Below are positions 1,507-31,735 of a stretch of DNA of 64,000 bases, piece after piece. The first letter of the stretch is position 1. Each line of letters starts with the position of its first letter. Made by a program: the position numbers and the translations under genes. The notes beneath the pieces were generated by a model, which saw only the letters and a list, made by a program, of their open reading frames with translations, was not told where the DNA came from and ran no database searches. Source of the DNA: Microgenomates group bacterium (GTDB taxonomy: Bacteria > Patescibacteriota > Microgenomatia > UBA12405); assembly GCA_049303675.1 (NCBI GenBank), contig JBAQNJ010000001.1, forward strand, positions 536,711 through 600,710. Direction: 5' to 3'.

Positions 1507-1518
1507 TTGTCTTTTTAA

Positions 1519-1560: not shown

Positions 1561-1650
1561 CAATTTATTATAAAAATAGATCTTTAAAAATGTATTTTTT
1601 TAGTTCTAAATTGTTTTAAAAAATTATTAAATTTTTAAATTTTTTTAAAA

Positions 1651-1962: not shown

Positions 1963-1967
1963 TCACT

Positions 1968-2588: not shown

Positions 2589-2593
2589 ATCAT

Positions 2594-3310: not shown

Positions 3311-3311
3311 T

Positions 3312-3617: not shown

Positions 3618-3618
3618 T

Positions 3619-4365: not shown

Positions 4366-4404
4366 CTTTTTACTTTTTCACTTTATAACTTTATAAACTA
4401 ACTT
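4366..4404 (+). repeat. CTTTATAA/AACTTTATAA tandem spacer motif upstream of rpsS
   Basis: Spacer ctttttactttttcactttataactttataaactaactt. Same motif family as spacers at 5779, 6683, 9447 and 9966. Confidence 0.6.
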
Positions 4405-4680
4405 ATGTCAAGATCAAGCAAAAAAGGACCATATATCGACGCCAAACTTCTGCTCAAGTCAGCCAAGATATCAGCCTCAGAGGCCATCAAAACTTGGGCC
4501 CGTAAAAGTCAGATTGCTCCCGAATTCATTGGTCACAACTATGCTGTTCACAATGGTAAAAAATTTGTCAACGTCTTTGTCACCGAAGACATGGTCGGTC
4601 ATTATTTTGGCGAATTTTCTCCCACCCGTACATTCAAAGGTCATGGACGTATTGTTAAACGTGTTATTGAAAAAACCTAA
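4405..4680 (+). CDS. rpsS: 30S ribosomal protein S19
   Basis: 91 aa. HNGKKFV and [16 protein letters not shown] motifs. Confidence 0.95.
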
Positions 4681-4683
4681 ACT

Positions 4684-5133
4684 ATGGCTATTACTACTAA
4701 AAAAACTACTACTGTCAAAAAAGCTGTTGTTAGTAAAACAACTGCTCCAAAAATTGTTGAGGCAATTCCCACCCCAGTCAAAACTGGTCTGGCTAAATAT
4801 ATCAACAAAAATCTCAAGGTCTCCCCCCGTAAATTACGTTTAGTGGTCACTGCTATCAAAAATCTTGATCCAGCTACCGCATATACCCGCCTCAAGTTTA
4901 CTAATTCTAACGCCGCCCAATTATTAGCCCGAGCAGTCCAAGATGTGATCGCTTCTGCCAAGAACAATCACCATCTCGATCCCGCCACTCTAAAATTTTC
5001 CGAAATGAGAGTTGATGAAGGCATGAAGATCAAACGCATGGACAAATCACATGGTTCCCGTTTTGCCCGAGGTATTATTCAAAAAAGACATAGTCGATTA
5101 GTTATCGTTTTATCTGGTACAATACAAAGTTAA
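4684..5133 (+). CDS. rplV: 50S ribosomal protein L22 with N-terminal extension
   Basis: 149 aa. L22 core (SPRKLRLVV...AKNN) preceded by a Thr/Lys-rich extension of about 35 aa. Confidence 0.9.
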   Translation: MAITTKKTTTVKKAVVSKTTAPKIVEAIPTPVKTGLAKYINKNLKVSPRKLRLVVTAIKNLDPATAYTRLKFTNSNAAQLLARAVQDVIASAKNNHHLDPATLKFSEMRVDEGMKIKRMDKSHGSRFARGIIQKRHSRLVIVLSGTIQS

Positions 5134-5136
5134 TCT

Positions 5137-5778
5137 ATGGGAAATAAAATTAATCCAATCGGTTTTAGGTTAGAGACTGTCAAAAACAGTCCAGAATGGC
5201 AGTCTTCGTGGTATGCCAATAAAAAGCTCTATCCTCAATTGTTATTAGAAGACAAAAAAATCCGTGATTTTGTCCAGAAAAAATTGTCATCTGCCGGTAT
5301 TGTTTCCATTCGCATCGAACGCTCAGTCAAGAAGCTCAAAATTATCTTAGTTGTTTCTCGTCCAGGATTAGTTATTGGTCGTGGTGGTAAAGAGTTGGAA
5401 ATGCTCAAAAAAGATATCCAGAAAATTATTGCCAAAACTCCAGGCAAACAAAACATTGACATTCAGGTAGAAGAGTTTAAATTAGCCGATCTATCCGCCA
5501 AACTAATTGCCGAAAAGATTGCCTTCCAATTAACCAAGAGAATGCCCTATCGCCGAGTTGTCCTCTCTTCGATCGAAAAATCAATGGCCGCCGGTGCCAA
5601 GGGTGTCAAAATCGTCCTTGGTGGACGTATTAATGGTGCCGAAATTAGTCGACGCGAAAAATTTTCGCAAGGCAAAGTTCCTCTTTCCACTATCCGATCC
5701 AAAATTGATTATGCCGAATGCCCTTCATTAACTCGTTCTGGCTATATCGGAGTTAAAGTTTATTTATGTCTGGTCTAA
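5137..5778 (+). CDS. rpsC: 30S ribosomal protein S3
   Basis: 213 aa. KH-domain motif (GRGGKELE) and the S3 C-terminal domain. Confidence 0.93.
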   Translation: MGNKINPIGFRLETVKNSPEWQSSWYANKKLYPQLLLEDKKIRDFVQKKLSSAGIVSIRIERSVKKLKIILVVSRPGLVIGRGGKELEMLKKDIQKIIAKTPGKQNIDIQVEEFKLADLSAKLIAEKIAFQLTKRMPYRRVVLSSIEKSMAAGAKGVKIVLGGRINGAEISRREKFSQGKVPLSTIRSKIDYAECPSLTRSGYIGVKVYLCLV

Positions 5779-5833
5779 TTTTATAACTTTAACTTTACAA
5801 ACTTTTAACTTTATAAACTTTATAAACTAAATT
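5779..5833 (+). repeat. AACTTTA(T/C)AA tandem spacer array upstream of rplP
   Basis: ttttataactttaactttacaaacttttaactttataaactttataaactaaatt holds about 5 degenerate units. Confidence 0.6.
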
Positions 5834-6238
5834 ATGTTACAACCATCCCGTACCAAATATCGTAAACAATTCCGTGGCCGCATGAGAGGGCTCTCTCAAG
5901 GTCACTTAGTTGAGTTTGGTGATTTTGGTCTCAAGGCTCTCGAGTGTGGCTGGCTCACTGCCAATCAAATCGAAGCCGCCCGCAAAGCTATTTCTCACGC
6001 CACCAAACGTAACGGCCGGATGTGGCTTCGCGTCTTTCCCGACAAACCCTTTACCGAAAAGGGTGCTGGTGCACCACTTGGTGCAGGCAAGGGTGATGTC
6101 AAGGGTTATGTCTGTGTAGTTCGTCCTGGACGAATTATGTTTGAAATTTCCGGTGTCACCGATGCCGAAGCTAAAATTGCCCTCAATCTCGCTTCTGCCA
6201 AGTTACCTGTTACTACCAAGGTTGTCAAAAGAATCTAA
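5834..6238 (+). CDS. rplP: 50S ribosomal protein L16
   Basis: 134 aa. Translation MLQPSRTKYRKQFRGR... is a classic L16 N-terminus. Confidence 0.95.
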   Translation: MLQPSRTKYRKQFRGRMRGLSQGHLVEFGDFGLKALECGWLTANQIEAARKAISHATKRNGRMWLRVFPDKPFTEKGAGAPLGAGKGDVKGYVCVVRPGRIMFEISGVTDAEAKIALNLASAKLPVTTKVVKRI

Positions 6239-6253
6239 TTTAACCTAGTAATT

Positions 6254-6454
6254 ATGAAAAAAACTGATAAAATGTCCTACAGGCAAAAATCTCTACCAGA
6301 GCTTCAAAAACTCATGGCCGATCTGCAGAAGAAACTAGTGGAAACTAGACTCAAGCATCTTACTGGAAATCAGAAAGACACCTCACAGATTCGTAAAGTT
6401 AAATATGAGATTGCCTACGTCTTAACATTAATTACCGAAAATGGAAACAAATAA
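6254..6454 (+). CDS. rpmC: 50S ribosomal protein L29
   Basis: 66 aa helical protein in the L29 position. Confidence 0.85.
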   Translation: MKKTDKMSYRQKSLPELQKLMADLQKKLVETRLKHLTGNQKDTSQIRKVKYEIAYVLTLITENGNK

Positions 6455-6707
6455 AGGAAAAACATTTACTGGTGTTGTCGTCTCCGACAAAATGACCAAT
6501 ACTATCGTTATTGAGCTGAGCTATACCTCACGTCATCCGATGTACAAAAAAATCGTCAAAAAACATAAGAAAATTTATTCAGAAAACAACTTATCCGCCA
6601 AAACTGGCGACACTGTCTTAGTCCGCGAAACTCGTCCCCTTAGCAAGCTCAAAAGATTCACTACTGTAGAAATTATTAAAAAAAATCAAGAACTTTCAAC
6701 TTTATAA
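6441..6707 (+). CDS. rpsQ: 30S ribosomal protein S17
   Basis: 88 aa. Translation GVVVSDKMTNTIVIE... matches S17. The last 6 codons are encoded by the AACTTTATAA repeat. Confidence 0.9.
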   Translation: METNKGKTFTGVVVSDKMTNTIVIELSYTSRHPMYKKIVKKHKKIYSENNLSAKTGDTVLVRETRPLSKLKRFTTVEIIKKNQELSTL

Positions 6708-6732
6708 CTTTTAACTTTATAAACTAATTTCT
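6683..6732 (+). repeat. AACTTTATAA spacer array overlapping the rpsQ 3' end and preceding rplN
   Basis: Sequence gaactttcaactttataacttttaactttataaactaatttct. Confidence 0.55.
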
Positions 6733-7101
6733 ATGTTACAACTACGCTCAATCATCAAACCAGCCGACAACTGCGGAGCCCGTCGTGTCATGGTCATGCA
6801 CATCTACAAGGGTAGCGTTCATCGTAGTGCTACTGTTGGTGATATTGTTTTAGCCGTCGTCAAAGATGCCATTCCCAATGGCATGGTCAAGAAAAAAGAA
6901 AAAGTCAAAATGGTTATTGTTCGAACACGCAAAGAAATTCAACGTGCCGATGGTTCCCTTATCCGTTTCTCTGACAATGCCGCCGTCGTTATCGATGCTC
7001 AAAATAATCCCCGTGGTACTCGTATCTTTGGGCCGATTGCTCGTGAAATCAAAGACTTAGGTTTTAATAAAATTGCTTCAATGGCTCAGGAGGTCTACTA
7101 A
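6733..7101 (+). CDS. rplN: 50S ribosomal protein L14
   Basis: 122 aa. MLQLRSIIKPADNCGAR matches the MIQxxTxLxVADNSGA core of L14. Confidence 0.95.
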   Translation: MLQLRSIIKPADNCGARRVMVMHIYKGSVHRSATVGDIVLAVVKDAIPNGMVKKKEKVKMVIVRTRKEIQRADGSLIRFSDNAAVVIDAQNNPRGTRIFGPIAREIKDLGFNKIASMAQEVY

Positions 7102-7102
7102 T

Positions 7103-7426
7103 ATGAAAATTCAAAAAGGTGATACCGTCAAAGTATTAATCGGCAAGGATAAAGGTCGTGAGGGAGTTGTCGTTTCTGCTTTCCCCAAAAAGGACTCCCT
7201 AGTCGTCAAAGGCCTCAATATCTACAAAAAACACGTTAAGCCCTCTCAAGGACAGAAGGGTGGTATAGTCGAAAAAGAACGCGCTCTCCACTCTTCAAAA
7301 TTAATGTTGATTTGTCCTTCCTGTAAAAAAGCCACCCGTGTCAGTTATCAAATTGACAAGACTGGTTCCAAGTATCGTATTTGTCAAAAATGTAAGGCTA
7401 TACTAACCAATAAATTAACCAAATAA
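7103..7426 (+). CDS. rplX: 50S ribosomal protein L24 with C-terminal C4 zinc-ribbon extension
   Basis: ATG at 7103 inside ORF 7073..7426. KOW motif (KGDTVKVLIGKDKGREG) plus CPSCKK...CQKCK at the C-terminus. Confidence 0.85.
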   Translation: MKIQKGDTVKVLIGKDKGREGVVVSAFPKKDSLVVKGLNIYKKHVKPSQGQKGGIVEKERALHSSKLMLICPSCKKATRVSYQIDKTGSKYRICQKCKAILTNKLTK

Positions 7427-7427
7427 T

Positions 7428-7970
7428 ATGACCACCTCAACTTCATCTCTCACCACTTCCTTACTTAAAACTCTCCAAACTCAGTTTCCCCAGAGGAACA
7501 TCCATTCATTCCCTTCCCTTACCAAGGTAGTTCTCAATTACCGTGTCAGCGACGGTCGTGATAGTCAAGAGCAATTAGCTGCTGCCGAGACAGAACTAGT
7601 CGCTATCGCTGGTCAAAAACCCAAGCTTTGTAAATCCAAAAAATCTATCGCTACTTTCAAATTACGTGAAGGTGAGCCCTTAGCCTACAAAGTTACCCTT
7701 CGTGGTCTGCGTATGCACCAATTTGTCGAGAAACTTTTCAACATTGTTTTGCCTCGTCTTCGTGATTTCAAAGGTATGCCTCTTTCCGCCTTTGATCAGG
7801 AGGGGAACTATAATCTAACTATCAAGGATCAGACCTATTTTCCTGAAATCAATTTAGATAAAGTCAACAAAATTAGACCTATTCAAATTACTCTGTGTAT
7901 ATCTTCCTCTTCAAAAGAAGATTCAAAAATGTTATTATCCGCCTTAGGTTTTCCATTTGAGAAACAATAA
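7428..7970 (+). CDS. rplE: 50S ribosomal protein L5
   Basis: 180 aa in the L5 position with an L5-like core. Confidence 0.92.
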
Positions 7971-7972
7971 AT

Positions 7973-8158
7973 ATGGCTACTACTGCAAAAATAGTTCGAG
8001 AAACTAAAAAACTAAAATATTCGGTCCGTCACCACAATCGGTGTAGTTTGTGTGGCCGTCCTCACGCATTTATTCGTTTATTTGGCATTTGCCGTCTTTG
8101 TTTTCGCAAACTCGCCAATGCCGGTATGTTGCCCGGAGTTAAAAAGGCTAGCTGGTAA
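7973..8158 (+). CDS. rpsN: 30S ribosomal protein S14, zinc-binding type Z
   Basis: 61 aa with CSLCGRP...CRLCFR, a CxxC-x12-CxxC arrangement. Confidence 0.9.
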
Positions 8159-8166
8159 AAATTACT

Positions 8167-8553
8167 ATGATTACTTCACTTTCCAACGATTTTTTAATTA
8201 GACTCAAAAATGGTTCCCGTGCTGATCGTAAAACAATTACGGCCCCTCTTTCCAAGTACTGTGTCGCTATTGCTCAATTGATCAAAAAGTATGGTTATAT
8301 TGCTGATTATTCTATCTCCGACTCTGACAAGCTGATAACTATCAGTTTTGCCTATCATGATGGTGTTCCAGCTATCTCCGATGTTCAATTATTTTCTCGT
8401 CCGGGACGTCGACTTTATGAAAAGGCTTTTTCCCTTCCCTGGGGTAAATCAAAAGACTCACTTATTATTATTTCCACATCCTCCGGTGTCATGTCTCAAA
8501 AAGAGGCCAAGAAAAGGGGATTGGGCGGCGAAGTTATCGCTGAAATTTGGTAA
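8167..8553 (+). CDS. rpsH: 30S ribosomal protein S8
   Basis: 128 aa in the S8 position with an S8-like C-terminus (GGEVIAEIW). Confidence 0.92.
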   Translation: MITSLSNDFLIRLKNGSRADRKTITAPLSKYCVAIAQLIKKYGYIADYSISDSDKLITISFAYHDGVPAISDVQLFSRPGRRLYEKAFSLPWGKSKDSLIIISTSSGVMSQKEAKKRGLGGEVIAEIW

Positions 8554-8559
8554 ACCACT

Positions 8560-9099
8560 ATGTCACGAATTGGAAATCTTCCCATTACTATTCCTGCAGG
8601 AGTCACTCTAGCCCAAGAAGGGTCACTCATTACTGTCACTGGACCCAAGGGTTCGTTGACCCTCTCTCTGCCACTCAAAATCAAAGTAGTCGTTACCGAT
8701 AATCAAGTTGTCATTTCTCGTTTAGGCGAGGACAAGAAAACCAAGGCTAATCATGGCACTATCCGTGCCCGAATTGCCAATATGATAAACGGTGTAGTCA
8801 CACTTTGGACCAAAGATATGGAAATCCGTGGCACTGGTTACAAATTCCAAGTCGCCGGCAACAAGCTCACTGTCCATGCTGGTTACATCAATCCTGTCGT
8901 AGTCACAGCCCTAGATGGGATATTTTTTGCCTCTGCCGACGAATCAAAACTAACCATTTCTGGTATCGACAAAGTAGTTGTTGGACAAACTGCCTCAAAT
9001 ATTCGTAAAATAAGAACACCCGAGCCTTACAAAGGTAAAGGAATTAGATATCTTAACGAATTTATCAAGCTCAAAGCCGGCAAGACCGCTAAAGCCTAA
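8560..9099 (+). CDS. rplF: 50S ribosomal protein L6
   Basis: 179 aa. MSRIGNLPITIP is the L6 N-terminus. Confidence 0.93.
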   Translation: MSRIGNLPITIPAGVTLAQEGSLITVTGPKGSLTLSLPLKIKVVVTDNQVVISRLGEDKKTKANHGTIRARIANMINGVVTLWTKDMEIRGTGYKFQVAGNKLTVHAGYINPVVVTALDGIFFASADESKLTISGIDKVVVGQTASNIRKIRTPEPYKGKGIRYLNEFIKLKAGKTAKA

Positions 9100-9104
9100 A
9101 ACAT

Positions 9105-9446
9105 ATGATCACTAAAAATAGAACTCAAAAAAGACAAAATCGTGTCCGTGCCAAAATTGCCAAAAACATTGGTATTCCTCGATTAACCGTCCTTCGTACT
9201 AACTCTCATATGTGGGTTCAGGTAATTGACGACAAACATGGTAAAACTTTAGCCAGTAGTTCCAGCAAAACCATCAAAGCTACTGGTTCCAAAACCGAAG
9301 TCGCCATTCAGGTTGGGACCGATATTGCCAAAAAATCATTAGCCAAGAAAATTCTCAATATTCGTTTTGATCGTGGTGGCTACAAATATCATGGCCGAGT
9401 CAAAGCTCTGGCCGATGCTGCCCGCGATGGAGGACTCAAGTTCTAA
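9105..9446 (+). CDS. rplR: 50S ribosomal protein L18
   Basis: 113 aa. RLTVLRTNSHMWVQVIDD and FDRGGYKYHGRVKALADAARDGGL match L18. Confidence 0.9.
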   Translation: MITKNRTQKRQNRVRAKIAKNIGIPRLTVLRTNSHMWVQVIDDKHGKTLASSSSKTIKATGSKTEVAIQVGTDIAKKSLAKKILNIRFDRGGYKYHGRVKALADAARDGGLKF

Positions 9447-9485
9447 CTTTATAACTTTATGAACTTTTAACTTTATAACTAACTT
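9447..9485 (+). repeat. AACTTTATAA spacer array upstream of rpsE
   Basis: Sequence ctttataactttatgaacttttaactttataactaactt. Confidence 0.6.
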
Positions 9486-9965
9486 ATGAACTCATCATTT
9501 GAAAACAAACAAATTCGCCATATGGATCGTCCTGAGTCTGAATTTACCGACAAAGTAGTCGAGATCAAACGTGTCAGCAAGAAGACCAAGGGTGGTAATC
9601 AAATTTCTTTTACCGCTCTGGTTGTTACTGGTGATAAAAAATCTCGTGTCGGGGTAGGTCATGCCCGAGCCAAGAGTGTCGCCGATGCAATTGCCAAGGC
9701 TATCCAAAAAGGCCGCAAATCCATTATGACTATCAATATTATCAACGGTACCATTGCTGATTCGATTAAATTAAAATTCAAGGGTGCCATAATTCTAATC
9801 CGTCCAGGCAAGCAGGGTAGCGGCTTAATCGCCGGAGGTCCAGTTCGCTCTGTTGTTGAATTAGCTGGTATTAAGGATATTGTTAGCAAAGTCATTGGTT
9901 CCAAGACCAAATCAGTTAATGTTTGGGCTACCTTCAAAGCTCTAGAACAATTCAAAAAAAACTAA
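9486..9965 (+). CDS. rpsE: 30S ribosomal protein S5
   Basis: 159 aa. dsRBD-like N-terminal domain plus the S5 C-terminal domain (GSGLIAGGPVRSV). Confidence 0.93.
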   Translation: MNSSFENKQIRHMDRPESEFTDKVVEIKRVSKKTKGGNQISFTALVVTGDKKSRVGVGHARAKSVADAIAKAIQKGRKSIMTINIINGTIADSIKLKFKGAIILIRPGKQGSGLIAGGPVRSVVELAGIKDIVSKVIGSKTKSVNVWATFKALEQFKKN

Positions 9966-10007
9966 TCTTTACAAACTTTATAAACTTTTAACTTTACAAA
10001 CTCTATT
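9966..10007 (+). repeat. AACTTTA(C/T)AA spacer array between rpsE and rplO, where rpmD is usually located
   Basis: Sequence ctaatctttacaaactttataaacttttaactttacaaactctatt. No L30 ORF is present here. Confidence 0.6.
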
Positions 10008-10427
10008 ATGAATATTCAATCAAGTTTACCCAAAACCACTACTAAACAGCAAAAAAGAGTCGGTCGTGGCTATGGTTCCGGTGTCGGTGGCCACACCACT
10101 GGTCGCGGCTCCAAGGGTGACAAAGTTCGCGGCACCACCAAAATTACTTTTGATGGTACCAAAATCAAAAAAGGCTGGATCAAACGGACACCTTTTTTGC
10201 GCGGCAAACATCGCACTCTCAAACTCGGCACCTATGCAGTTTTCAACTTATCCCGAATTGATGCTATGTTCAAGGCAGGGGAAACCGTTGATACCAAAGC
10301 CCTCAAATTTATGTCTGTCAAAATTTTGGGTAGTGGCACGCTGACCAAAGCCCTCAACTTCAAAGGATTGGTTTATTCCGAATCAGCCAAGAAGGCCATA
10401 TTAGCAGCCGGTGGTAAGATAGATTAA
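10008..10427 (+). CDS. rplO: 50S ribosomal protein L15
   Basis: 139 aa. Gly-rich N-terminus (GRGYGSGVGGHTTGRGSKG) typical of L15. Confidence 0.9.
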   Translation: MNIQSSLPKTTTKQQKRVGRGYGSGVGGHTTGRGSKGDKVRGTTKITFDGTKIKKGWIKRTPFLRGKHRTLKLGTYAVFNLSRIDAMFKAGETVDTKALKFMSVKILGSGTLTKALNFKGLVYSESAKKAILAAGGKID

Positions 10428-11707
10428 TGAACAAATTCTTTCATTCCCTCTCTCTCTACGTCGAAGGTCTAAAAACTCCGCTTCTTAGGAAAAAAATAGG
10501 TTTTACTCTTGGTATCCTTATTCTCTTTCGTTTAATTGCTCATATCCCTGTTCCGGGTGTCAATTTAGCTCTCTTGCGTCAGTTCTTTTCCCAAAACCAA
10601 TTATTATCACTTCTCGACATATTTTCTGGTGGCACTCTCGCCAACTTTTCTATTGCTGCCCTTGGGTTAAATCCCTACATCAACGCCTCAGTGATGATGC
10701 AGTTACTGACATTAGTTAGCCCTCAGTTGGAGGCACTCAGCAAAGAAGGTGAGTATGGTCGTGCCAAGATTAACCAATATACCAGAATCATTACCATTCC
10801 CTTGGCGATTGTCCAAGCATTGGGAATGTATGGTATTTTAAGATCGCAAAACATTATTTCCAACTTAGCTCCACTTACCTTGATAGCTTTAGTCTTAAGT
10901 ATGTTGGCCGGCACTATGATCATGATATTTTTAGGCCAGCTAATAAATCAATTTGGCGTTGGCAATGGCATTTCTATGATTATTTTTGCCGGTATCATTT
11001 CTCGATTACCACTTTCTGCGGTTCAGGCATATAGCATTACCGACTTTAGTAATCCACAGACCGGCATAAATTTGGTAGTTTTTGCTCTAATGGCCATTGG
11101 ATTAATTTTAGCCATAGTTACGGTAGAAGAAGCTATATTACGCATTCCCATTCACTATGCCAAGCGGGCTCAGGTCACTTATCTACCTGTCAAGGTTGAT
11201 ACTGCCGGAGTCATGCCCATTATTTTTGCTGTATCTTTGGCCACTATTCCCTCACTAATCGGTCAATCCTTAGGTAAACTCTCCAATCCAGCTATAGCCA
11301 ACCCAGCTTTAGCCATGGCTCACTTTTTCCGTACTGATGGTTATTTTTACATCATATTTTATTTCTTACTCGTCATTGGTTTTACCTTTTTCTATACTAG
11401 TGTTGTTTTCAAGCCCAAAGATATTGCGGAGGAATTACGCAAGTCTGGTGGATTTATTCCAGGGATTCGTCCGGGTATTGCCACCGAAAAACGCCTTGGC
11501 TATCTCATAAATAGAGTTATAGTTATTGGAGCTGTCTTTTTAGGTACCATTGCCGTCTCACCCTCGATTGTCCAAAAAATGACCGGCATCACTTCATTAA
11601 CCATTGGTGGAACCTCTGTTTTGATTGTGGTTTCAGTAGTTATCGAGCTCACTCGCAAAATCGAAAACGTTGTCCAAACTTATAATTACGATAAGTTAAC
11701 TTATTAA
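10427..11707 (+). CDS. secY: preprotein translocase subunit SecY
   Basis: 426 aa multi-pass membrane protein in the secY position, with a SecY-like TM pattern. Confidence 0.95.
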   Translation: MNKFFHSLSLYVEGLKTPLLRKKIGFTLGILILFRLIAHIPVPGVNLALLRQFFSQNQLLSLLDIFSGGTLANFSIAALGLNPYINASVMMQLLTLVSPQLEALSKEGEYGRAKINQYTRIITIPLAIVQALGMYGILRSQNIISNLAPLTLIALVLSMLAGTMIMIFLGQLINQFGVGNGISMIIFAGIISRLPLSAVQAYSITDFSNPQTGINLVVFALMAIGLILAIVTVEEAILRIPIHYAKRAQVTYLPVKVDTAGVMPIIFAVSLATIPSLIGQSLGKLSNPAIANPALAMAHFFRTDGYFYIIFYFLLVIGFTFFYTSVVFKPKDIAEELRKSGGFIPGIRPGIATEKRLGYLINRVIVIGAVFLGTIAVSPSIVQKMTGITSLTIGGTSVLIVVSVVIELTRKIENVVQTYNYDKLTY

Positions 11708-12288
11708 TGCCTCTTAATTTATTTATAATCGGACCTAGTGGCTGTGGCAAAACTACCCAGGCCAAAAAAATCGCTGAAAAATATTCTCTCAGCCATATCT
11801 CCATGGGGCAATTGCTACGAGACGAAATTACTAAAAAGAGTGGTTTTGGACTTGAAGCCAAAAAATATATTGATGACGGACAACTTGTTCCAGATGATCT
11901 AGTTTTTGACGTATTGATTTTAAAACTCAAATCTCTCAATTATCAAAATTTTATTATCGACGGCTTCCCTCGAATTTTAAATCAAGGACGGATCATCGAA
12001 TTTTATTTACGTAAGCAAAATATGCCCATATCAGCCGTGATTCATTTGGGTGTCACCTTTGCGGAAATCACTGATCGTCGAGTCAAAATGGGGGACGACT
12101 TTCAAGACAAAACCCGCACCGACAATACTCCTGCTGATATCGCCAACCGTCAAAAGTTTTACGATGACAATATTGAACCTATCCGTGATTATTTCACTCG
12201 CAAAAGCGAGTTCATTGATATCGACGGCAACCGCCCTATCGAACCTATATTTGAGGATATCTGTTTGGCCATCAATAAACTTTTATGA
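11707..12288 (+). CDS. adk: adenylate kinase, short-lid type
   Basis: 193 aa. The sequence carries a GPSGCGKTT P-loop and follows secY. Confidence 0.9.
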   Translation: MPLNLFIIGPSGCGKTTQAKKIAEKYSLSHISMGQLLRDEITKKSGFGLEAKKYIDDGQLVPDDLVFDVLILKLKSLNYQNFIIDGFPRILNQGRIIEFYLRKQNMPISAVIHLGVTFAEITDRRVKMGDDFQDKTRTDNTPADIANRQKFYDDNIEPIRDYFTRKSEFIDIDGNRPIEPIFEDICLAINKLL

Positions 12289-12782
12289 AAGTAGCTATTT
12301 TTATTGCCACATCTATTAATGGTCTAATTACCAAAGCTGATTTTGACTCAGACTGGGTCAATGATTGGGATACTTTTACCACAATCATCAAAGAATATGG
12401 TTGCGTGGTTATGGGACGTAAAACATATGAAGCTTCTCTAGAAGTCTCTCCTTTTCCTGCTGCTCAAAATGTAGTTTTGACTAGCAACACTGAGATTTCC
12501 AACGACAAGGTAATTTTTTTAAATTTATCTCCAGCAGAAGCTCTATCAGTACTAAACAAGAGGGGATTCGACAAGTTACTCCTAATTGGAGGTCAATATA
12601 CTATTACTGAATTTCTCAAGGCGGGACTAGTTGATGAAATATATCTAGATGTACATCCACTTTATATCGGTCGAGGCAAATCAATTTCTCAGTCAATTGA
12701 TAATTTAGATCTCACCTTAATCGATACAAAAACATCAGAACAAGGTATTGTCACCCTACATTACAAAATCAATAAAATATGA
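12285..12782 (+). CDS. dihydrofolate reductase-like / RibD C-terminal domain protein
   Basis: 165 aa. MKVAIFIATSINGLI...VVMGRKTYE...LLIGGQ...DEIYL pattern typical of the RibD_C/DHFR family. It occupies the slot where map usually sits. Confidence 0.7.
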   Translation: MKVAIFIATSINGLITKADFDSDWVNDWDTFTTIIKEYGCVVMGRKTYEASLEVSPFPAAQNVVLTSNTEISNDKVIFLNLSPAEALSVLNKRGFDKLLLIGGQYTITEFLKAGLVDEIYLDVHPLYIGRGKSISQSIDNLDLTLIDTKTSEQGIVTLHYKINKI

Positions 12783-13270
12783 AAACCTTTACCGAATTTT
12801 TCCACAAACTAATTCAAAACGCCAACAGCCAAACTATTTTTGAAATCTTTGGTCAAAAAAAGACAATCAAAGGTATGTCACTATATTCAGCCGAACATGG
12901 CAGTAAATACTACAAAATCGTCTTTTCAGACAACAGTCTACTAATTGTCCTGCCAGAAGAACAGATAGTTCAGTATGCCCACAAGGAATTGGGTCATATA
13001 AAATCAATCTCCGACGAAGATGTCGGTGAAAAAGATATAATTGAATACAAAAATCACCAGTTCAAGTTGGAAAACAAACACGATTATCAATTTGTATTAC
13101 AAAAAATTGTCGGTGGATTGCATGACATCGAAGGTGAGTGTCAATTTTCCGACTATGTTAACATAAGCGATTCAGGAGATTGTCTTAGTTTGGCTTGGAT
13201 TGCCTTCGACGGCCGCCGCTCCGACGTCAATTCCCAGACTATCAATATAAAAGATATTAATATTTTATAA
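12779..13270 (+). CDS. hypothetical protein, no recognisable domain
   Basis: 163-aa ORF tightly coupled (4-nt overlap) to the upstream gene inside the ribosomal operon. Confidence 0.5.
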   Translation: MKTFTEFFHKLIQNANSQTIFEIFGQKKTIKGMSLYSAEHGSKYYKIVFSDNSLLIVLPEEQIVQYAHKELGHIKSISDEDVGEKDIIEYKNHQFKLENKHDYQFVLQKIVGGLHDIEGECQFSDYVNISDSGDCLSLAWIAFDGRRSDVNSQTINIKDINIL

Positions 13271-13284
13271 TTTAATAAATATAC

Positions 13285-13491
13285 TTGATGAAAGATCCAA
13301 CTGTTCGAGCAACTGTTACTGAGGTATTGCCAAATCAACTATTTCGAGCTAAACTCGAAAACGGCAAAGAAATTATTTGCCATTTAGCCGGCAAATTGAG
13401 GATGAATCACATCCGCTGTCTCGCAGGTGACGCAGTTTCCCTAGTTCTCTCCCCCGAGGGTGAAAAGGGTAGAATTGTCTACCGAGGCTAA
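13285..13491 (+). CDS. infA: translation initiation factor IF-1
   Basis: 68 aa. Translation GTVTEVLPNQLFRAKLENGKEIICHLAGKLRMNHIR...GRIVYR matches IF-1 (S1-like OB fold). Confidence 0.92.
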   Translation: MMKDPTVRATVTEVLPNQLFRAKLENGKEIICHLAGKLRMNHIRCLAGDAVSLVLSPEGEKGRIVYRG

Positions 13492-13560
13492 ATTAAATTT
13501 ACTCTTTGATATTGAAGGCTATTTAGGTTACAATATCCAAGTCTTAAAAACCAAAAAAAT

Positions 13561-13674
13561 ATGAAAGTCCAGTCTAGCATCCGCCGTCGTTGTAAAAATT
13601 GCAAGGTGGTTATCAGATCTGGTGTCCGACGAATTATTTGTTCTACCAAAAAACATACCCAAAAACAGGGCTAA
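13561..13674 (+). CDS. rpmJ: 50S ribosomal protein L36
   Basis: 37 aa, MKVQSSIRRRCKNCKVVIRSGVRRIICSTKKHTQKQG, with the L36 C-x2-C-x12-C-x4-H pattern. Absent from the ORF track because it is under 60 aa. Confidence 0.88.
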   Translation: MKVQSSIRRRCKNCKVVIRSGVRRIICSTKKHTQKQG

Positions 13675-13677
13675 ACT

Positions 13678-14097
13678 ATGAGAATATCCGGTATTGAAAT
13701 TCCCGATCATGAGAGAGCGCAGGTAGGCCTCACCCGTTTTTACGGTATTGGTCCTGTCAATGTTCTAGCCCTGGCCGTCCTCGCCAAAATTGACTTAAAC
13801 AAAAGAATCAAAGATTTATCCCGCGACGAAATTGGAAGTCTCATGAAAGCACTCGAGAGTTTCAAAGTCGAAGGGGATCTCAAAAAAGACATTCGCGAAA
13901 ATATCGATCGTCTCCGAGCCATTAAATGCTATCGCGGCATTCGCCATATCGTCTCTCTACCTGTTCGCGGTCAACGGACCAAATCCAATGCCCGTACTCG
14001 CAAAGGCAAGAAAAAGACCGTCGGTTCACTTACCAAAGAAGCATGGGCAAAAATCGAAACCCAGCAAAAAGCCGCTACCGTGGCCACCAATAAATAA
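13678..14097 (+). CDS. rpsM: 30S ribosomal protein S13
   Basis: 139 aa. MRISGIEIPDHERAQVGLTRFYGIG is a classic S13 N-terminus. Confidence 0.95.
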   Translation: MRISGIEIPDHERAQVGLTRFYGIGPVNVLALAVLAKIDLNKRIKDLSRDEIGSLMKALESFKVEGDLKKDIRENIDRLRAIKCYRGIRHIVSLPVRGQRTKSNARTRKGKKKTVGSLTKEAWAKIETQQKAATVATNK

Positions 14098-14102
14098 AAC
14101 AT

Positions 14103-14522
14103 ATGGCAGAAAAAACCTCCAAACCAACTACCACTACCAATTCTACTCCGACAAAGAAAAAGGTCTACAAAAATATCGCCGAGGGTCGACTGACTATCAA
14201 ATCATCTTTCAACAACACCATTGTCGCTATTACCGATGCTAAGGGGAATACACTGGCATGGTCTTCTGCTGGCCATTGTGGTTTCAAGGGAGCCCGCAAG
14301 TCTACTCCTTTTGCGGCTACTACCGCTATCGAACGCACTCTCGAAGAAGCCAAAAAATATGGTATCAAAAAGTTAGAAATTTATCTCAATGGACCTGGAG
14401 TTGGTCGAGATGCCGCTCTCCGTTTTCTTCGCAGCAAACGCGATTTCGACGTTGAAATGATCTCTGATGTCACTCCCATTGCCCATAACGGTCCTCGACC
14501 ACCCAAGTCCCGCCGTGCCTAA
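14103..14522 (+). CDS. rpsK: 30S ribosomal protein S11
   Basis: 139 aa. The sequence carries the S11 motifs SFNNTIVAITDAKGN and HNGPRPPKSRR. Confidence 0.95.
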   Translation: MAEKTSKPTTTTNSTPTKKKVYKNIAEGRLTIKSSFNNTIVAITDAKGNTLAWSSAGHCGFKGARKSTPFAATTAIERTLEEAKKYGIKKLEIYLNGPGVGRDAALRFLRSKRDFDVEMISDVTPIAHNGPRPPKSRRA

Positions 14523-14531
14523 TAACTAAAT

Positions 14532-15164
14532 ATGTCAAGAATAACCTTAGATTCAAAATGTCGTCTCTGTCGAGCAGCTGGTACCAAGCTCTATCTCAAA
14601 GGTGCCCGTTGTTTATCTTCAAAATGCCCTATTGAGAAAAAGGGAGCTATCGCTCCAGGTATGCACGGTGCCAAGAGATCCAAAAAACCCACTGATTACG
14701 GCATTCAATTAAAAGCCAAGCAAAAAGCCAAAAGAATATTTGGCGTCCAAGAGACTCAATTTAAAAATTATTTTCTCTTAGCCAAGACCAAGAAAGGGCT
14801 AGTGGGCGAAAATTTATTAGATTTAGTTGCCCGTCGGCTTGACAATGTTGTCTACGAAGCCGGACTATCACTCTCCCGTTCCCATGCCAAACAATTAATT
14901 TCTCATCGACACATTTTGGTCAATGGCAAAGTGCTCAATATTGCCTCATATCCGGTCAAAAAGTCAGATGTTATTACCCTAGATACCACCTCTGCTTCCA
15001 AAAGCATCGATACTATTCGTCTAACCGACAAGGACTTCAAAGCTCCGCAGTGGTTGGACCTTCAAAAAGCCAAATATTCAGTCTCTTTAGCCGCTGGTAC
15101 TCCGGAATATGGCTATGCAAAAGAGATTGATCTAAATTTAATAATTGAATATTATTCTAGATAA
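14532..15164 (+). CDS. rpsD: 30S ribosomal protein S4
   Basis: 210 aa. N-terminal Cys cluster (CRLCRAAG...CLSSKC) plus an S4 domain. Confidence 0.95.
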   Translation: MSRITLDSKCRLCRAAGTKLYLKGARCLSSKCPIEKKGAIAPGMHGAKRSKKPTDYGIQLKAKQKAKRIFGVQETQFKNYFLLAKTKKGLVGENLLDLVARRLDNVVYEAGLSLSRSHAKQLISHRHILVNGKVLNIASYPVKKSDVITLDTTSASKSIDTIRLTDKDFKAPQWLDLQKAKYSVSLAAGTPEYGYAKEIDLNLIIEYYSR

Positions 15165-15175
15165 AGGAGATAAAT

Positions 15176-16093
15176 ATGGTAGATACAAGCAAATTTAACA
15201 TCAAATCCATCAAAGCCAATGATAGCTATGGAAAATTCGAGCTCTCACCACTTATTGGTGGATTCGGTCATACAATTGGTAATTGTCTTCGCAGAATTTT
15301 ATTAATCACCATCCCTGGTGCTGCCATTACCAAAATCAAAGTTGATGGTGTCAACCATCTCTTTACCACCCTCGCTGGAGTCAAGGAAGACTTAGTTGAT
15401 ATTTCTCTTAATTTAAAAAAAGTAAAATTTACCTATCATCAGGACGAGCCAATTACTCTCGAAATCAATAAAAAGGGTGTCGGTGTAGTCACTGCCAAAG
15501 ACATTATTGGCAACGATCTTTGCCAAGTCTCCAATCCCGACCAAATCATTGCCACAATTACTGACAGCAAGACCACTCTTCGTATCGAATTAGTCGTCGA
15601 AAGGGGAGTCGGTTATACACTGGCCAAAGAACAAAAGACCGATATCATCGGCCAAATAATTCTTGATGCCACTTTTACTCCTGTTCTACGCGCTAATTAC
15701 CAGGTAGAGCCAACTCGTCTTGGTAAAAAATCAAACTATGATAAGTTGACTATGGAAATATGGACTGATGGCTCCATCGATCCCCTGACTGCTATGAAAA
15801 TCGCTGCCAAGGATATGATCAAGACACTTTCCCAAATAGTTGATCCCAAAGAATTTGATGATGAAGTCATCACACTTGCCAGCAACCCTTCAGTCTCTGG
15901 ATTAGACATCTCCATCGAAGAAATCGAACTACCTCTCCGAGTCACCAATGCTCTCAAAAAATCGGGCTATACCACTATTGACAACCTGCTCAAGGGTGGA
16001 CGGGCTGATGTTAGCAAGGCCAAAAACGTTGGTGAAAAATCTTTAAAAATTATTGACGCATGGCTCAAGGAGAAAAACTTTAGCTGGAAGTAA
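15176..16093 (+). CDS. rpoA: DNA-directed RNA polymerase subunit alpha
   Basis: 305 aa. N-terminal dimerisation domain and C-terminal alpha-CTD (ELPLRVTNALKKSGYTTIDNL). Confidence 0.95.
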   Translation: MVDTSKFNIKSIKANDSYGKFELSPLIGGFGHTIGNCLRRILLITIPGAAITKIKVDGVNHLFTTLAGVKEDLVDISLNLKKVKFTYHQDEPITLEINKKGVGVVTAKDIIGNDLCQVSNPDQIIATITDSKTTLRIELVVERGVGYTLAKEQKTDIIGQIILDATFTPVLRANYQVEPTRLGKKSNYDKLTMEIWTDGSIDPLTAMKIAAKDMIKTLSQIVDPKEFDDEVITLASNPSVSGLDISIEEIELPLRVTNALKKSGYTTIDNLLKGGRADVSKAKNVGEKSLKIIDAWLKEKNFSWK

Positions 16094-16102
16094 CTAAAAT
16101 GT

Positions 16103-16579
16103 ATGAACCATCGTAAATTTGGCATCAAACTAGGACGCAATCGTCGCGAAAGAGAAGCACTTTTCAAATCTTTGGTCCGATCAGTTTTTACCCACGGTAC
16201 CATTCAAACCACTAGTGCCAAGGCAAGATCAGTTGTCCCCATCATTGAAAAACTCGCCAACCATATCATGGTCAAGGATGTTGTCCTAGCCTCACGCGAA
16301 CTTTCTACTTATATTCAGGACAAAAATCTAGTCAGTCAAATTGTTGCCAGTGCCAAATCAGCCTTTGCCGATCAAACTAGCAACTTCACCACCATGTCCA
16401 AAGTCAAAATCAGACTGGGTGACGATGCTCTTATTGTAAAGTTTGGTTTTGTTAAACCCTACAAACTAATCATTAAAGATAAAAAAGAAGTCATTAAAAA
16501 AGAAGCTGTTAAAAAAGAAGTTCTTAAAAAGGCAGTAGCGAAGAAAGTCGTTAAGTCAAAAGTTTCTAAAACAAAATGA
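16103..16579 (+). CDS. rplQ: 50S ribosomal protein L17 with Lys-rich C-terminal extension
   Basis: 158 aa. L17 core followed by a roughly 40-aa KKEVIKKEAVKKEV... tail. Confidence 0.9.
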   Translation: MNHRKFGIKLGRNRREREALFKSLVRSVFTHGTIQTTSAKARSVVPIIEKLANHIMVKDVVLASRELSTYIQDKNLVSQIVASAKSAFADQTSNFTTMSKVKIRLGDDALIVKFGFVKPYKLIIKDKKEVIKKEAVKKEVLKKAVAKKVVKSKVSKTK

Positions 16580-16995
16580 AAACCAAAACAACCGTCACCA
16601 AAGGTAACATTATAGATCGTAAATGGCATTTAATTGATCTATCAGATCAAGTATTAGGTCGTGTTTGCGTCAAAATTGCCAATATTTTACAAGGTAAAGA
16701 CAAAATTGATTATTCACCCAACCGTGACGCCGGAGATTATGTGGTCGCTATCAATGCTGCCAAAATACGTGTCACCGGCAAGAAAATGACTGATAAAATT
16801 TATTATCATCACACTGGATATGCTGGTCATCTGCGCGAACTAACCCTTGAACAACTAATGAAAAAAGATCCTCGACAGGTCATTTCTATTGGTGTTCGTG
16901 GTATGTTACCCAAAAACAAATTACGTGCCCGACGTCTGACTCGTCTTAAAATATTTATTGATGCCAACCACACCTACAATGACAAAATCAAATAG
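16576..16995 (+). CDS. rplM: 50S ribosomal protein L13
   Basis: 139 aa. WHLIDLSDQVLGRVCVKIANILQGK is L13-like. Confidence 0.93.
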   Translation: MKTKTTVTKGNIIDRKWHLIDLSDQVLGRVCVKIANILQGKDKIDYSPNRDAGDYVVAINAAKIRVTGKKMTDKIYYHHTGYAGHLRELTLEQLMKKDPRQVISIGVRGMLPKNKLRARRLTRLKIFIDANHTYNDKIK

Positions 16996-17395
16996 TAAAA
17001 ACACCTATACTTATGCTCTCGGTCGACGCAAATCTGCCGTCGCTACAGTCAAGCTTTTTGCCGGTAAATCTGGCGAAAGCCAAGTCAATGGTCAAAAAGC
17101 CGAAGCCTATTTTGTCGGTGAACATAATAAAATTATTTCCGAAAAACCATTTGTGGTGACCTCGACTGTCGGCAAATACTACTACCAGGCCAAAATCGTT
17201 GGTGGTGGTAAGAATGGCCAGTTAGATGCCCTAGTTTTGGCTATTTCTCGGGCTCTGAAGAAAATTGATGAAGCTGCCTACAAACCACTACTTCGAGCCG
17301 CTGGCTTTCTCACTGTTGACTCTCGTGTCCGTGAGCGACGGATGGTTGGTACTGGTGGCAAGGCCCGCCGCCAAAAGCAATCTCCTAAGCGTTAA
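16979..17395 (+). CDS. rpsI: 30S ribosomal protein S9
   Basis: ATG at 16979 within ORF 16958..17395. C-terminal GGKARRQKQSPKR is the S9 signature. Confidence 0.9.
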   Translation: MTKSNSKNTYTYALGRRKSAVATVKLFAGKSGESQVNGQKAEAYFVGEHNKIISEKPFVVTSTVGKYYYQAKIVGGGKNGQLDALVLAISRALKKIDEAAYKPLLRAAGFLTVDSRVRERRMVGTGGKARRQKQSPKR

Positions 17396-17411
17396 AATAT
17401 TAAAGTCAAAT

Positions 17412-23902: not shown

Positions 23903-24175
23903 ATGACCAAAAAAGATCTAATCGAAGTCGTCTCCACCAAGGCCAAACTTTCCAAGAAAGCCGCCAAGGTAGCAGTTGAAACATTTTTAAATGAAATCAT
24001 GAAAGCCCTCGGCAATGGTGATGTTGTCAAACTCTCTGGTTTTGGTACTTTCAAAACCAAAATGTTCAAGGCCAAGACCATCAAAGCTATCGGTAGCAAA
24101 GAATCCAAGAAGATCGTTGCTCGCCGCATGCCTCGTTATATCCCCGGCACCAAGATCAAGAAAATGGTCAAATAA
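23903..24175 (+). CDS. hup: DNA-binding protein HU
   Basis: 90 aa. MTKKDLIEVV...GFGTFK and RMPRYIPGTK match the HU/IHF family. Confidence 0.9.
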   Translation: MTKKDLIEVVSTKAKLSKKAAKVAVETFLNEIMKALGNGDVVKLSGFGTFKTKMFKAKTIKAIGSKESKKIVARRMPRYIPGTKIKKMVK

Positions 24176-30043: not shown

Positions 30044-31032
30044 TGAAAGCCCAGCGAATTGAAATATCCACCAAGACAATTGTATTTACCGTTTCCTTTT
30101 TACTCGGGCTTTGGCTGCTGTGGTTTTTGCGCGATATTATTTTACTCATGTTTATTTGTGTGATTTTTATGGAGGTCCTCAATCCTGCTATCAGCACTCT
30201 CCAGAATTTTAAAATCCCTAGGTTTCTCAGCATTATCTTTATCTACACCGTGGTCATTAGCTTTATTAGTTTTATGCTAGCTTGGGTCATTCCTATATTA
30301 GTTAGCGAGACATCTGGACTACTTCGAGTTTTACCAGACTCTCTCCAAAACATAAACATCATGGGGTTTTCCGCCATCGATTTGTCATCTCAATTTAAAA
30401 TTCTTGAGTCAATTCCTGCCAATGTCGCTTGGACAGTAATTTCCTTTTTTTCCAATTTATTTACTGGCTTTCTCATCCTAGTTATCACCTTTTATCTACT
30501 AATTGAGAGAGAAAAATTAGACGACTACACCGCCATGTTTTTTGATTCAAAGGGGCAGGATATAGTCAAAAGTGTTTTCAATAAAGTCGAGAAGAGGCTT
30601 GGTCGCTGGGTCAACGGCGAGCTTATTTTGATGTCCGTGATTGGTATCTTGTCATACTTGGGATATGTTTCAGTTGGTCTAAACTATGCCCTTCCTTTAG
30701 CTATTATAGCTGGATTACTAGAAGTAGTTCCTACTGCTGGACCAATTGCCGCGACAATTCTGGCTGCCCTTGTTGGACTGACCACCTCCCCCTTAACTGC
30801 TTTATTTGCAGTTTTCTGGGGAATTATTGTTCAGCAATTAGAAAACAATTTTATAGTCCCCAAAATCATGAATGCTGCCGTCGGTCTCCACCCCATTATT
30901 ACCATTCTCGTCATTACCATCGGTGCCAAGTTTGCCGGTGTTGGTGGCGCCCTACTTGCCGTGCCTGTTTATATTACTTTTGAGACTATCGTCCGCTCCA
31001 TTTTGGAGTGGAAAAAAAGTGCTTCCAAGTAG
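30028..31032 (+). CDS. AI-2E family transporter (UPF0118/PerM-like)
   Basis: 334 aa, about 8 TM helices, overall AI-2E topology. Confidence 0.75.
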   Translation: MVQSVMKAQRIEISTKTIVFTVSFLLGLWLLWFLRDIILLMFICVIFMEVLNPAISTLQNFKIPRFLSIIFIYTVVISFISFMLAWVIPILVSETSGLLRVLPDSLQNINIMGFSAIDLSSQFKILESIPANVAWTVISFFSNLFTGFLILVITFYLLIEREKLDDYTAMFFDSKGQDIVKSVFNKVEKRLGRWVNGELILMSVIGILSYLGYVSVGLNYALPLAIIAGLLEVVPTAGPIAATILAALVGLTTSPLTALFAVFWGIIVQQLENNFIVPKIMNAAVGLHPIITILVITIGAKFAGVGGALLAVPVYITFETIVRSILEWKKSASK

Positions 31033-31311
31033 CCGATAAGCCGAATTCTGTTTAGGAACCATTTATCTATTCTCTTTACCTGAGACTCTCGAAAGAGAGA
31101 TATTAACGTCTCGACTCAAGATTTCCACCAAAGGGTTGCTCGTTTCATTTCAGGCGCCGGAGCTTCTTGCGAAGGCGACCCCATCTCGTCTCTGTAGCAG
31201 CGCCCCTAGCTTGCGCCAGTGTCTACTTTTTCGACCTTTGTTCTTTCTGTGGTTCGGACTTTCCTGCCGCGATTTTTAAAATCGGGCTTGATTCCTCAAC
31301 TACTTGGAAGC
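31021..31311 (-). ncRNA. rnpB: RNase P RNA (reduced bacterial type)
   Basis: Minus strand carries P4 5' strand AGGAAAGTCCGAAC and P4 3' strand ACAGAATTCGGCTTA with compensatory GAA/TTC changes. A 12-bp P1 (GCTTCCAAGTAG/CTACTTGGAAGC) closes the ends. P3-like hairpin CGATTTTAAAAATCG. Confidence 0.65.
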
Positions 31312-31325
31312 AACTACATTCTACC

Positions 31326-31362
31326 AAAAAAAATCCCCCCGAGCTTGTCGAGGGGGATTTTT
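31326..31362. terminator. bidirectional terminator hairpin
   Basis: AAAAAAAATCCCCCCGAGCTTGTCGAGGGGGATTTTTT lies 3' of the minus-strand small gene and 5' of rnpB. Confidence 0.6.
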
Positions 31363-31372
31363 TAAGTACTTA

Positions 31373-31549
31373 CTACGACAATAAAGCTGCATCTGCAGCG
31401 GATAGTATTTTGAACATTTTAGTTCCGGTCTCTGGATCGACTGCTTCTGCTGCTGGTCTACCGTTCTTCAACATTACTTTTTTAACCTTACTGACATCAA
31501 CCTCGACGGATTTTCGAGATTTTACTGAATAAAATTTTATTACTGGCAT
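31373..31549 (-). CDS. 58-aa basic small protein with strong SD; tentative Sul7d/SH3-like nucleic-acid-binding fold
   Basis: ATG at 31549 preceded by AGGAGGTG (9-nt spacer), TAG at 31373-31375, then a terminator hairpin. Translation MPVIKFYSVKSRKSVEVDVSKVKKVMLKNGRPAAEAVDPETGTKMFKILSAADAALLS. Missed by the ORF track because it is under 60 aa. Confidence 0.6.
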   Translation of the reverse strand: MPVIKFYSVKSRKSVEVDVSKVKKVMLKNGRPAAEAVDPETGTKMFKILSAADAALLS

Positions 31550-31735
31550 TAATCTTCACCTCCTAAATAATTAATAATTAACGGTTATTTTGGAAAAATA
31601 TACGAACAATACCAACCCGACACAGATCAAACTAAGGACAATACTTTTAATCAAATCTTTTTTTAAATAATTTTCTTGATTCATTTGGCTTCAAAGCCAG
31701 TATAGCACAATCAATTTTGTTACAATAACTTAGTT

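Follow-up and report, generated by a model that had tools for sequence, protein, structure and literature searches.

A small basic protein of Shapirobacteria, apparently a cysteine-less orthologue of the DUF5679 zinc-ribbon family, with a predicted Cren7/Sul7d-like fold

We analysed a 64,000-nucleotide stretch of a Microgenomates group bacterium genome (contig JBAQNJ010000001.1, positions 536,711 to 600,710; hereafter the window), in which a minus-strand open reading frame (ORF) at 31373..31549 encodes a 58-amino-acid (aa) protein, MPVIKFYSVKSRKSVEVDVSKVKKVMLKNGRPAAEAVDPETGTKMFKILSAADAALLS. The ORF translation is exactly the sequence given in an initial annotation of the window, which had likened the protein to the chromatin protein Sul7d (Sso7d/Sac7d). 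We found that it is a real, very strongly conserved basic protein of Shapirobacteria, which belong to the candidate-phyla-radiation (CPR) bacteria, and sequence comparisons place it among the zinc ribbons of DUF5679 (PF18930), as an orthologue lacking all four zinc-binding cysteines. The explanation that best accommodates all observations, and that we hold with reasonable though not high confidence, is a DUF5679 orthologue devoid of cysteines, predicted to adopt a Cren7/Sul7d-like fold and possibly acting as an abundant DNA-binding architectural protein. It is a zinc-less variant, new here, of a known and uncharacterised family.

Conservation and family identity

Among 5.8 billion proteins, 108 clusters of relatives (clustering at 90% identity) were recovered, mostly 57-58 aa long and 80-95% identical to the query; the named clusters were assigned to Woesebacteria, Shapirobacteria or Patescibacteria. 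Genomes were scanned with an alignment of the 58-aa protein (A3), taking one genome per GTDB species, and relatives of the gene were detected in at least 219 of these species-representative genomes. The best 80 of the 219 relatives were examined and nearly all of them lay on Shapirobacteria-type contigs. The block common to the Shapirobacteria-type loci follows the gene ordering: DUF3048 - DUF4446 - (37-aa ORF) - 58-aa gene - rnpB - AI-2E permease - MiaA. In these loci the 58-aa protein is 79-100% identical to that of the window, against 45-75% for the flanking proteins; at two of them, L013 and L014, the identity reaches 100% over 57 residues. Across 2850 pairs of coding sequences (CDS) of the gene, pN was 0.098 and pS 0.67 (saturated), and the 58-aa gene is under purifying selection. 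The possibility that the ORF is not a gene was rejected on the grounds of its conservation in 219 genomes and of the pN/pS values.

The sole Pfam match of the query was DUF5679 (PF18930), over the full model (1-40) with an E-value of 0.021. A phmmer search against 1.84 billion representatives provided a continuous link from the query to DUF5679 proteins with four cysteines (Cys4), for example FYCLKCKK...SVCPICGAK and AYCVKCKK...GVCPKCGTK. In a wide family alignment of 25 Cys-less and Cys4 members (A2), 11 of which match PF18930 (best E-value 1.4e-17), the four cysteine columns correspond to S8, S11, D38 and T41 of the query. Common to the query and the Cys4 members are the central KNGRPA motif, the F-K-I strand and G42, which follows the second knuckle. 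In close homologues L27, N29, G30, R31, A33 and A34 are invariant, and N29 and G30 remain nearly invariant across the wide alignment. Many Cys4 members of DUF5679 do not possess the C-terminal helix SAADAALL conserved in the query.

PF18930 is carried by orthologues 62-86% identical to the query (P0069, P0094, P0157, P0158 and P0162). Within this set P0157, P0158 and P0162 (MATITFYCVKCRASK...KNGRPAAKAVCPDCGTGMFKILSAK...), encoded by Patescibacteria and 62-63% identical to the query, retain all four cysteines. The Cys4 loci of P0158 (L005) and L092 occupy the same syntenic slot as the query (DUF3048-DUF4446-gene-rnpB-AI-2E-MiaA) and, being in the same gene block, are its positional orthologues. 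Partial intermediates were also found in the same orthologous group, with C8 and C38 (P0069), C8 and C11 (P0106) or C8 only (L060, L082 and L087). We typed the cysteine state of 93 related loci, comprising the 80 of the genome scan, 12 further loci and that of the window: 3 have the complete CCCC set, 3 have C8 only and the rest have no cysteine. A rough neighbour-joining tree built on the neighbouring DUF3048 proteins groups the Cys4 loci with L060 in a single clade, close to the midpoint root. Since orthologues with one to four cysteines occupy the same slot, the loss of the zinc ligands occurred within this bacterial lineage.

An ancestral Cys4 type-2 zinc ribbon (CxxC ... CPxCG) lost its ligands in the Shapirobacteria lineage, the four cysteines being replaced by S/N, S, D and T. 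The ligand-less form kept the scaffold of five strands, the beta3-beta4 hairpin with its invariant L-K-N-G-R-P-A-A and a short C-terminal helix, and the predicted outcome is a metal-free mini beta-barrel. The Cys4, Cys2, Cys1 and Cys0 stages are kept in orthologues of one genomic slot with 62-95% identity, and provide a naturally matched series for studying the passage from a metal-stabilised mini-fold to a self-stabilised one. Should the 58-aa protein prove to be no more than a common small binder of nucleic acid, this evolutionary case still stands.

Small zinc-ribbon ribosomal proteins such as L31, L33, L36 and S14 exist with and without the four cysteines, their fold being kept. In these pairs the two forms are paralogues switched by zinc availability, whereas here the forms with and without cysteines are orthologues found in different genomes. 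A ribosomal-protein identity was considered for the query itself and dropped, as no supporting evidence was found, and searches of NCBIfam and PHROGs returned nothing useful for it.

Outside the Shapirobacteria-type loci, Cys-less orthologues were detected in Longilinea (Chloroflexota; L068, L069, L077 and L078, together with L007-L009). These proteins are 72-74% identical to the query and span 65-67 aa, including a C-terminal extension that is basic, and their genes lie in a different context, downstream of a ComM/Mg-chelatase gene. The GC content of the gene is 0.49-0.52, compared with 0.48-0.58 for the loci. The Longilinea copies may result from a cross-phylum transfer. Further Cys-less lineages were noticed in the wider family (P0116, P0118, P0120, P0130, P0131, P0132, P0138 and P0159; loci L125 and L127). 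In these the second knuckle is either shorter (xNGxK) or longer (VTIDGETHK), and they are encoded by stand-alone genes in unrelated contexts. They suggest that the DUF5679 family lost its zinc site several times independently. Besides, many species-representative contigs bearing the Shapirobacteria-type block (L016-L019, L022-L024, L050, L072, L073 and others) carry record titles such as 'uncultured Gammaproteobacteria', 'Bacillota', 'Parcubacteria' or 'Candidatus Methanoperedens'. The contigs, which come from metagenome-assembled genomes, look like mislabelled or misbinned CPR sequences.

Predicted fold and relation to Cren7 and Sul7d

An AlphaFold2 model of the query, built with a 40-sequence alignment, reached a pLDDT of 87.3 and a pTM of 0.64. 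It comprises five strands (residues 3-8, 13-18, 23-26, 32-37 and 44-48) followed by a helix (51-57), and the segment L27-K28-N29-G30-R31, which bears the invariant motif of the family, forms the beta3-beta4 hairpin. The model of a Cys4 orthologue (pLDDT 84.6) has the same predicted secondary structure, with strand boundaries identical to those of the query.

The query model was compared with 350,542 PDB chains using Foldseek. The best matches were Cren7 chains, with E-values of 0.04-0.1, probabilities of 0.95-0.99 and template-modelling (TM) scores of 0.54-0.58; the majority of the twelve best-ranked matches are Cren7 chains. The first of them, 6a2i_A, was matched with an E-value of 0.042, a probability of 0.99, TM-scores of 0.56/0.58 and 25% identity. 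Sac7d and Sso7d structures gave TM-scores of 0.49-0.53, root-mean-square deviations (rmsd) of 3.2-3.6 A, E-values of 0.13-1, with 0.13-0.3 for the best of them, and 26-28% identity (1xyi_A: E-value 0.13, TM-score 0.50, 28% identity). No PDB match of the query model reached an E-value of 0.001 or less. The Cys4 model retrieved Sac7d, Sso7d and Cren7 (TM-scores 0.58-0.61) mixed with the true zinc ribbons Rpp21, LysW and LeuRS. Predicted viral structures named as zinc ribbons, including a TFIIE-alpha finger, fitted the query better, with TM-scores of 0.68-0.73 and rmsd of 1.2-2.7 A. Searching the PDB with sequences and with profiles retrieved no solved homologue of the query; matches to LHC were dismissed as due to a chance KNGRLA motif, and those to PCNA were not significant. 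As modelled, the scaffold of the query is that of a type-2 zinc ribbon without metal, whose closest solved structures are Cren7 and Sul7d.

This combination has a precedent in archaea. According to Kaur, Iyer, Subramanian and Aravind 2018 (PMC5906684), type-2 zinc ribbons are similar in topology to SH3-like barrels, and Cren7 and Sul7 derived from such ribbons by loss of the ligands, converging on the SH3-like barrel. The beta1/beta2 and beta4/beta5 turns of Cren7 correspond to the pair of zinc knuckles, 2-4 cysteines are still present in some relatives of Cren7, and Sul7 probably arose from a Cys-less Cren7 (PMC5906684). Both families were stated to be confined to Crenarchaeota and Bathyarchaeota (PMC5906684).

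The query shares features with each of them. Cren7 is comparable in size and isoelectric point (6.7 kDa, pI 9.9) and has a G-R-containing beta3-beta4 loop, as does the query; it differs in having no C-terminal helix and in being archaeal, the query protein being found in CPR bacteria and Chloroflexota. Sul7d has five strands followed by a C-terminal helix, in the same order as in the query model, and an N-terminal hairpin similar to that of the query (VKF...EVD(I/V)SK(I/V)KKV). Sso7d is likewise small and basic (7.3 kDa, pI 9.7). On the other hand, Sul7d is restricted to Sulfolobales and binds dsDNA non-specifically, kinking it at the minor groove, whereas DNA binding by the query is predicted.

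The initial annotation had noted sequence blocks shared with Sso7d and had raised the prospect of a bacterial Sul7d homologue. A true homologue of Sul7d, or of Cren7, could have been acquired by transfer from Crenarchaeota or descend from an ancient shared Cys-less ancestor. The local similarity of the blocks was reproduced by BLASTP and hhalign and is not significant as homology. With BLASTP, residues 1-26 of the query align with Sso7d at 46% identity and a pairwise E-value of 3e-4. Forced global hhalign comparisons gave 33% identity in both cases, over 55 columns with a probability of 23% for Sul7d and over 54 columns with a probability of 1.5% for Cren7; the latter alignment pairs the query residues G30-R31, K47 and F46 with G32-R33, R51 and F50 of Cren7. 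The beta4/beta5 turn of the query, DPETG, is identical to that of Cren7, and Cren7 and Sul7d provide the top PDB fold matches of the query model. Against a true homology, no match of the query to Sul7d (PF02294) or Cren7 (PF11520) was found in Pfam at E-values up to 10. When run locally, hhalign aligned A2 with a 21-sequence Sul7d alignment over the N-terminal 23 columns only (probability 6.8%) and with a 33-sequence Cren7 alignment at a probability of 0.2%; against a single Cren7 sequence, only DPETG aligned. As a control, hhalign was applied to Cren7 and Sul7d, an accepted pair, and returned a probability of 0.4%. The test is insensitive and, as the control pair also fails, it leaves room for a very deep shared zinc-ribbon ancestry. 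The closest relatives of the query (62-86% identity) are bacterial, carry 1-4 cysteines and sit in the same genomic slot. Moreover, DPETG replaces the CPxCG of the query's own orthologues, which fits a convergence at this beta-turn. The Cys4 positional orthologues largely refute a descent from Sul7d or Cren7, and we regard such a descent as highly improbable.

The intuition of the initial annotation about the fold was right and its family assignment was wrong: the predicted five strands and C-terminal helix do resemble Sul7d (Foldseek TM-score about 0.50), Pfam and hhalign give no membership of that family, and the true relatives are bacterial DUF5679 zinc ribbons. Because Cren7 and Sul7d are themselves thought to be zinc ribbons without zinc, we attribute the resemblance to two parallel evolutionary paths starting from one scaffold, rather than to Sul7d ancestry. 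The query is an independent bacterial replay of the transition from zinc ribbon to Cren7/Sul7d-like protein, and extends to bacteria a transition that Kaur et al. 2018 (PMC5906684) placed in Crenarchaeota and Bathyarchaeota only.

Possible function

The 58-aa protein has a mass of 6.3 kDa and a pI of 9.8, with 11 K+R against 6 D+E; the initial annotation had rightly described it as small and basic, and its values are close to those of Sso7d and Cren7. Two features of the protein itself suggest a nucleic-acid binder. One is its net charge of +5. The other is the position of its invariant residues in the beta3-beta4 hairpin, which belongs to the beta3-beta4-beta5 sheet on which Cren7, Sul7d and type-2 zinc ribbons bind nucleic acids (PMC5906684). 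Together with the architectures of family members and the signs of abundance given below, they make us consider binding of nucleic acid by the 58-aa protein rather likely. The alternative offered by the initial annotation, a convergent SH3-like nucleic-acid-binding mini-protein, lies close to the evidence, the binding itself being the part that we infer.

A link of the DUF5679 family to DNA comes from its domain architectures. P0125 is a topoisomerase I preceded at its N-terminus by two tandem DUF5679 domains (Toprim match; topoisomerase I match at 2.7e-15), and P0136 and P0119 carry K/S-rich, histone-H1-like tails. We propose that the 58-aa protein would be made in large amounts, as its strong conserved Shine-Dalgarno (SD) sequence and near-invariant protein sequence suggest, and that it would bind nucleic acid, most likely DNA, with the KNGR hairpin and the three-stranded basic sheet beta3-beta4-beta5. 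Its place beside HU would be that of a small protein with an architectural or nucleoid-associated role. The more specific role of a bacterial analogue of Cren7 and Sul7d, that is, an abundant DNA-bending chromatin protein arisen independently from a zinc ribbon, is a tentative proposal that we would put at somewhat less than even.

Several points weigh against this interpretation. The query scores 15.4 bits for PF18930, under the Pfam gathering threshold of 27, and the structural evidence consists of predictions with modest scores. In the forced alignments, the residues with which Sul7d and Cren7 intercalate into DNA lack evident equivalents in the query: W24, V26 and M29 of Sul7d face M26, N29 and P32 (low confidence), and the invariant W26 and L28 of Cren7 face K23 and V25. 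An HU-type DNA-binding protein is already encoded in the same window, at 23903..24175 on the plus strand (PF00216, E-value 9e-20). The topoisomerase I fusion was seen in one cluster representative only, the presumed abundance is read from the SD sequence alone, and a search of the literature on DUF5679/PF18930 and on Cren7 in Patescibacteria found no functional work.

Instead of binding DNA, the protein could be a protein-protein adaptor or small regulator that modulates, for instance, a sigma factor, a membrane partner or topoisomerase I, the KNGRPAA hairpin then being a docking motif. Many small zinc ribbons are protein-interaction modules, and extreme conservation is typical of proteins with multiple partners. 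The fusion of P0125 to topoisomerase I and that of P0128, in which DUF5679 is fused to Sigma70_r2, could be Rosetta-stone links to partners rather than signs of DNA binding, and the gene is preceded, at 21 nt, by a conserved ORF for a membrane-like product of 37 aa. Each of these fusions was however seen once and could be an assembly or gene-calling artefact, and neither the net charge of +5 and pI of 9.8 nor the H1-like basic tails of some DUF5679 members favour an adaptor, which we consider unlikely. DUF5679 is a large family, matched more than 5,600 times in this analysis, and the 58-aa protein, as a probable nucleic-acid binder, gives it a first lead to a function. It is also a candidate small DNA-binding or chromatin-like protein for uncultured CPR bacteria, whose nucleoid biology is little known.

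Gene layout and the neighbouring rnpB

All the elements surrounding the 58-aa gene lie on the minus strand. The canonical SD sequence mentioned in the initial annotation, AGGAGGTG, is present at 31557..31564; it ends 7 nt before the ATG, the reported spacer of 9 nt being obtained when counting from the GGAGG core. It occurs once in the 64-kb window, where 1.56 occurrences are expected by chance, and is therefore not enriched. Its position is conserved, as GGAGGTG or GGGGGTG is found at the same place before the start in all the Shapirobacteria-type related loci. Just past the stop codon, the reported terminator of the gene was recovered as an intrinsic-terminator-like hairpin with a T-run (31326..31355; stem 31335..31355), its 8-bp stem containing 6 G-C pairs. 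A comparable hairpin and T-run can be seen in many, not all, related loci, as judged by eye and not by a formal count.

Located 21 nt upstream of the 58-aa gene, at 31571..31684, is the 37-aa hydrophobic ORF MNQENYLKKDLIKSIVLSLICVGLVLFVYFSKITVNY, which is possibly co-transcribed with it. The ORF was found with tblastn at 36-78% identity in 39 related loci, corresponds to a 46-aa gene call in relatives and had no match in a Pfam search. From its sequence it may be a small membrane protein.

Downstream, the adjacency to rnpB was borne out: the gene for the RNase P RNA lies at 31028..31304, directly after the 58-aa gene, and was detected with the Rfam model RF00373 at 107 bits. In nearly all the Shapirobacteria-type loci, including the genomes with the Cys4 form, rnpB follows the gene at a distance of 24-231 nt and has the same orientation; in four loci an insertion of 544-990 nt separates the two genes. 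The conservation and synteny that the initial annotation had considered telling are thus kept in the Shapirobacteria-type loci for the gene, its SD sequence and its adjacency to rnpB. The adjacency does not extend to the Chloroflexota orthologues, since no rnpB was found near the Longilinea loci even at E-values up to 0.1.

Between the terminator and rnpB, at 31318..31326, an extended -10 element, TGGTAGAAT, can be read from the sequence. At the equivalent place, most related loci have TGnTA(A/G/T)AAT or TAAAAT/TATAAT. In some of them the -10 box directly follows the stop codon, so that any -35 box would fall inside the CDS. This element is likely the promoter of rnpB, marking a separate transcription unit. 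The RNase P RNAs of the window and of three related loci (L001 3246-3513, L005 3206-3486 and L010 3271-3523; 84-107 bits) score best with the archaeal model RF00373 and not with a bacterial one, which fits the reduced or diverged RNase P RNAs of CPR bacteria (Lui et al. 2021, PMC8172020).

These features raise the question of whether the 58-aa protein could be an RNA-binding cofactor or chaperone of the downstream, archaeal-looking RNase P RNA, analogous to the archaeal subunit Rpp21. The persistence of rnpB downstream of the gene in nearly all the Shapirobacteria-type species genomes speaks for it, as do the best score of rnpB with the archaeal Rfam model, the zinc-ribbon nature of archaeal Rpp21 and the known reduction of CPR RNase P RNAs (PMC8172020). 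Moreover, the Cys4 model matches Rpp21 structures (6k0a_G, 2ki7_B and 1x0t) with E-values of 0.4-1.5 and TM-scores of 0.37-0.42. Such matches are however generic for zinc ribbons and low in TM-score; weak as they are, they concern the Cys4 orthologue only, and the query has no Pfam match to Rpp21. Besides, Rpp21 is made of N-terminal helices and a C-terminal zinc ribbon, and the query has no counterpart of the helical part. As for the adjacency, synteny in these genomes covers the entire block, DUF3048 through MiaA, and the proximity of rnpB therefore adds no information. Co-transcription with rnpB was likewise set aside as a functional argument, given this synteny and the terminator and/or separate extended -10 promoter lying between the two genes. 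The insertions of 544-990 nt in four loci, the Longilinea orthologues with 72-74% identity and no nearby rnpB, and the unrelated contexts of other family members also argue against an involvement in RNase P. A cofactor or chaperone role, like any functional tie to RNase P, is consequently very unlikely. We give hardly any credence to the strongest version, in which the protein would be a dedicated zinc-ribbon-derived accessory subunit of RNase P in CPR bacteria, functionally analogous to Rpp21; if it were true, bacterial RNase P would not always be a simple enzyme made of the RNA and RnpA.

Elsewhere in the window, the N-terminal sequences of the ORFs indicate tuf and an S10-spc-alpha ribosomal protein cluster at 334..17400 on the plus strand. 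The 58-aa gene lies outside this cluster.

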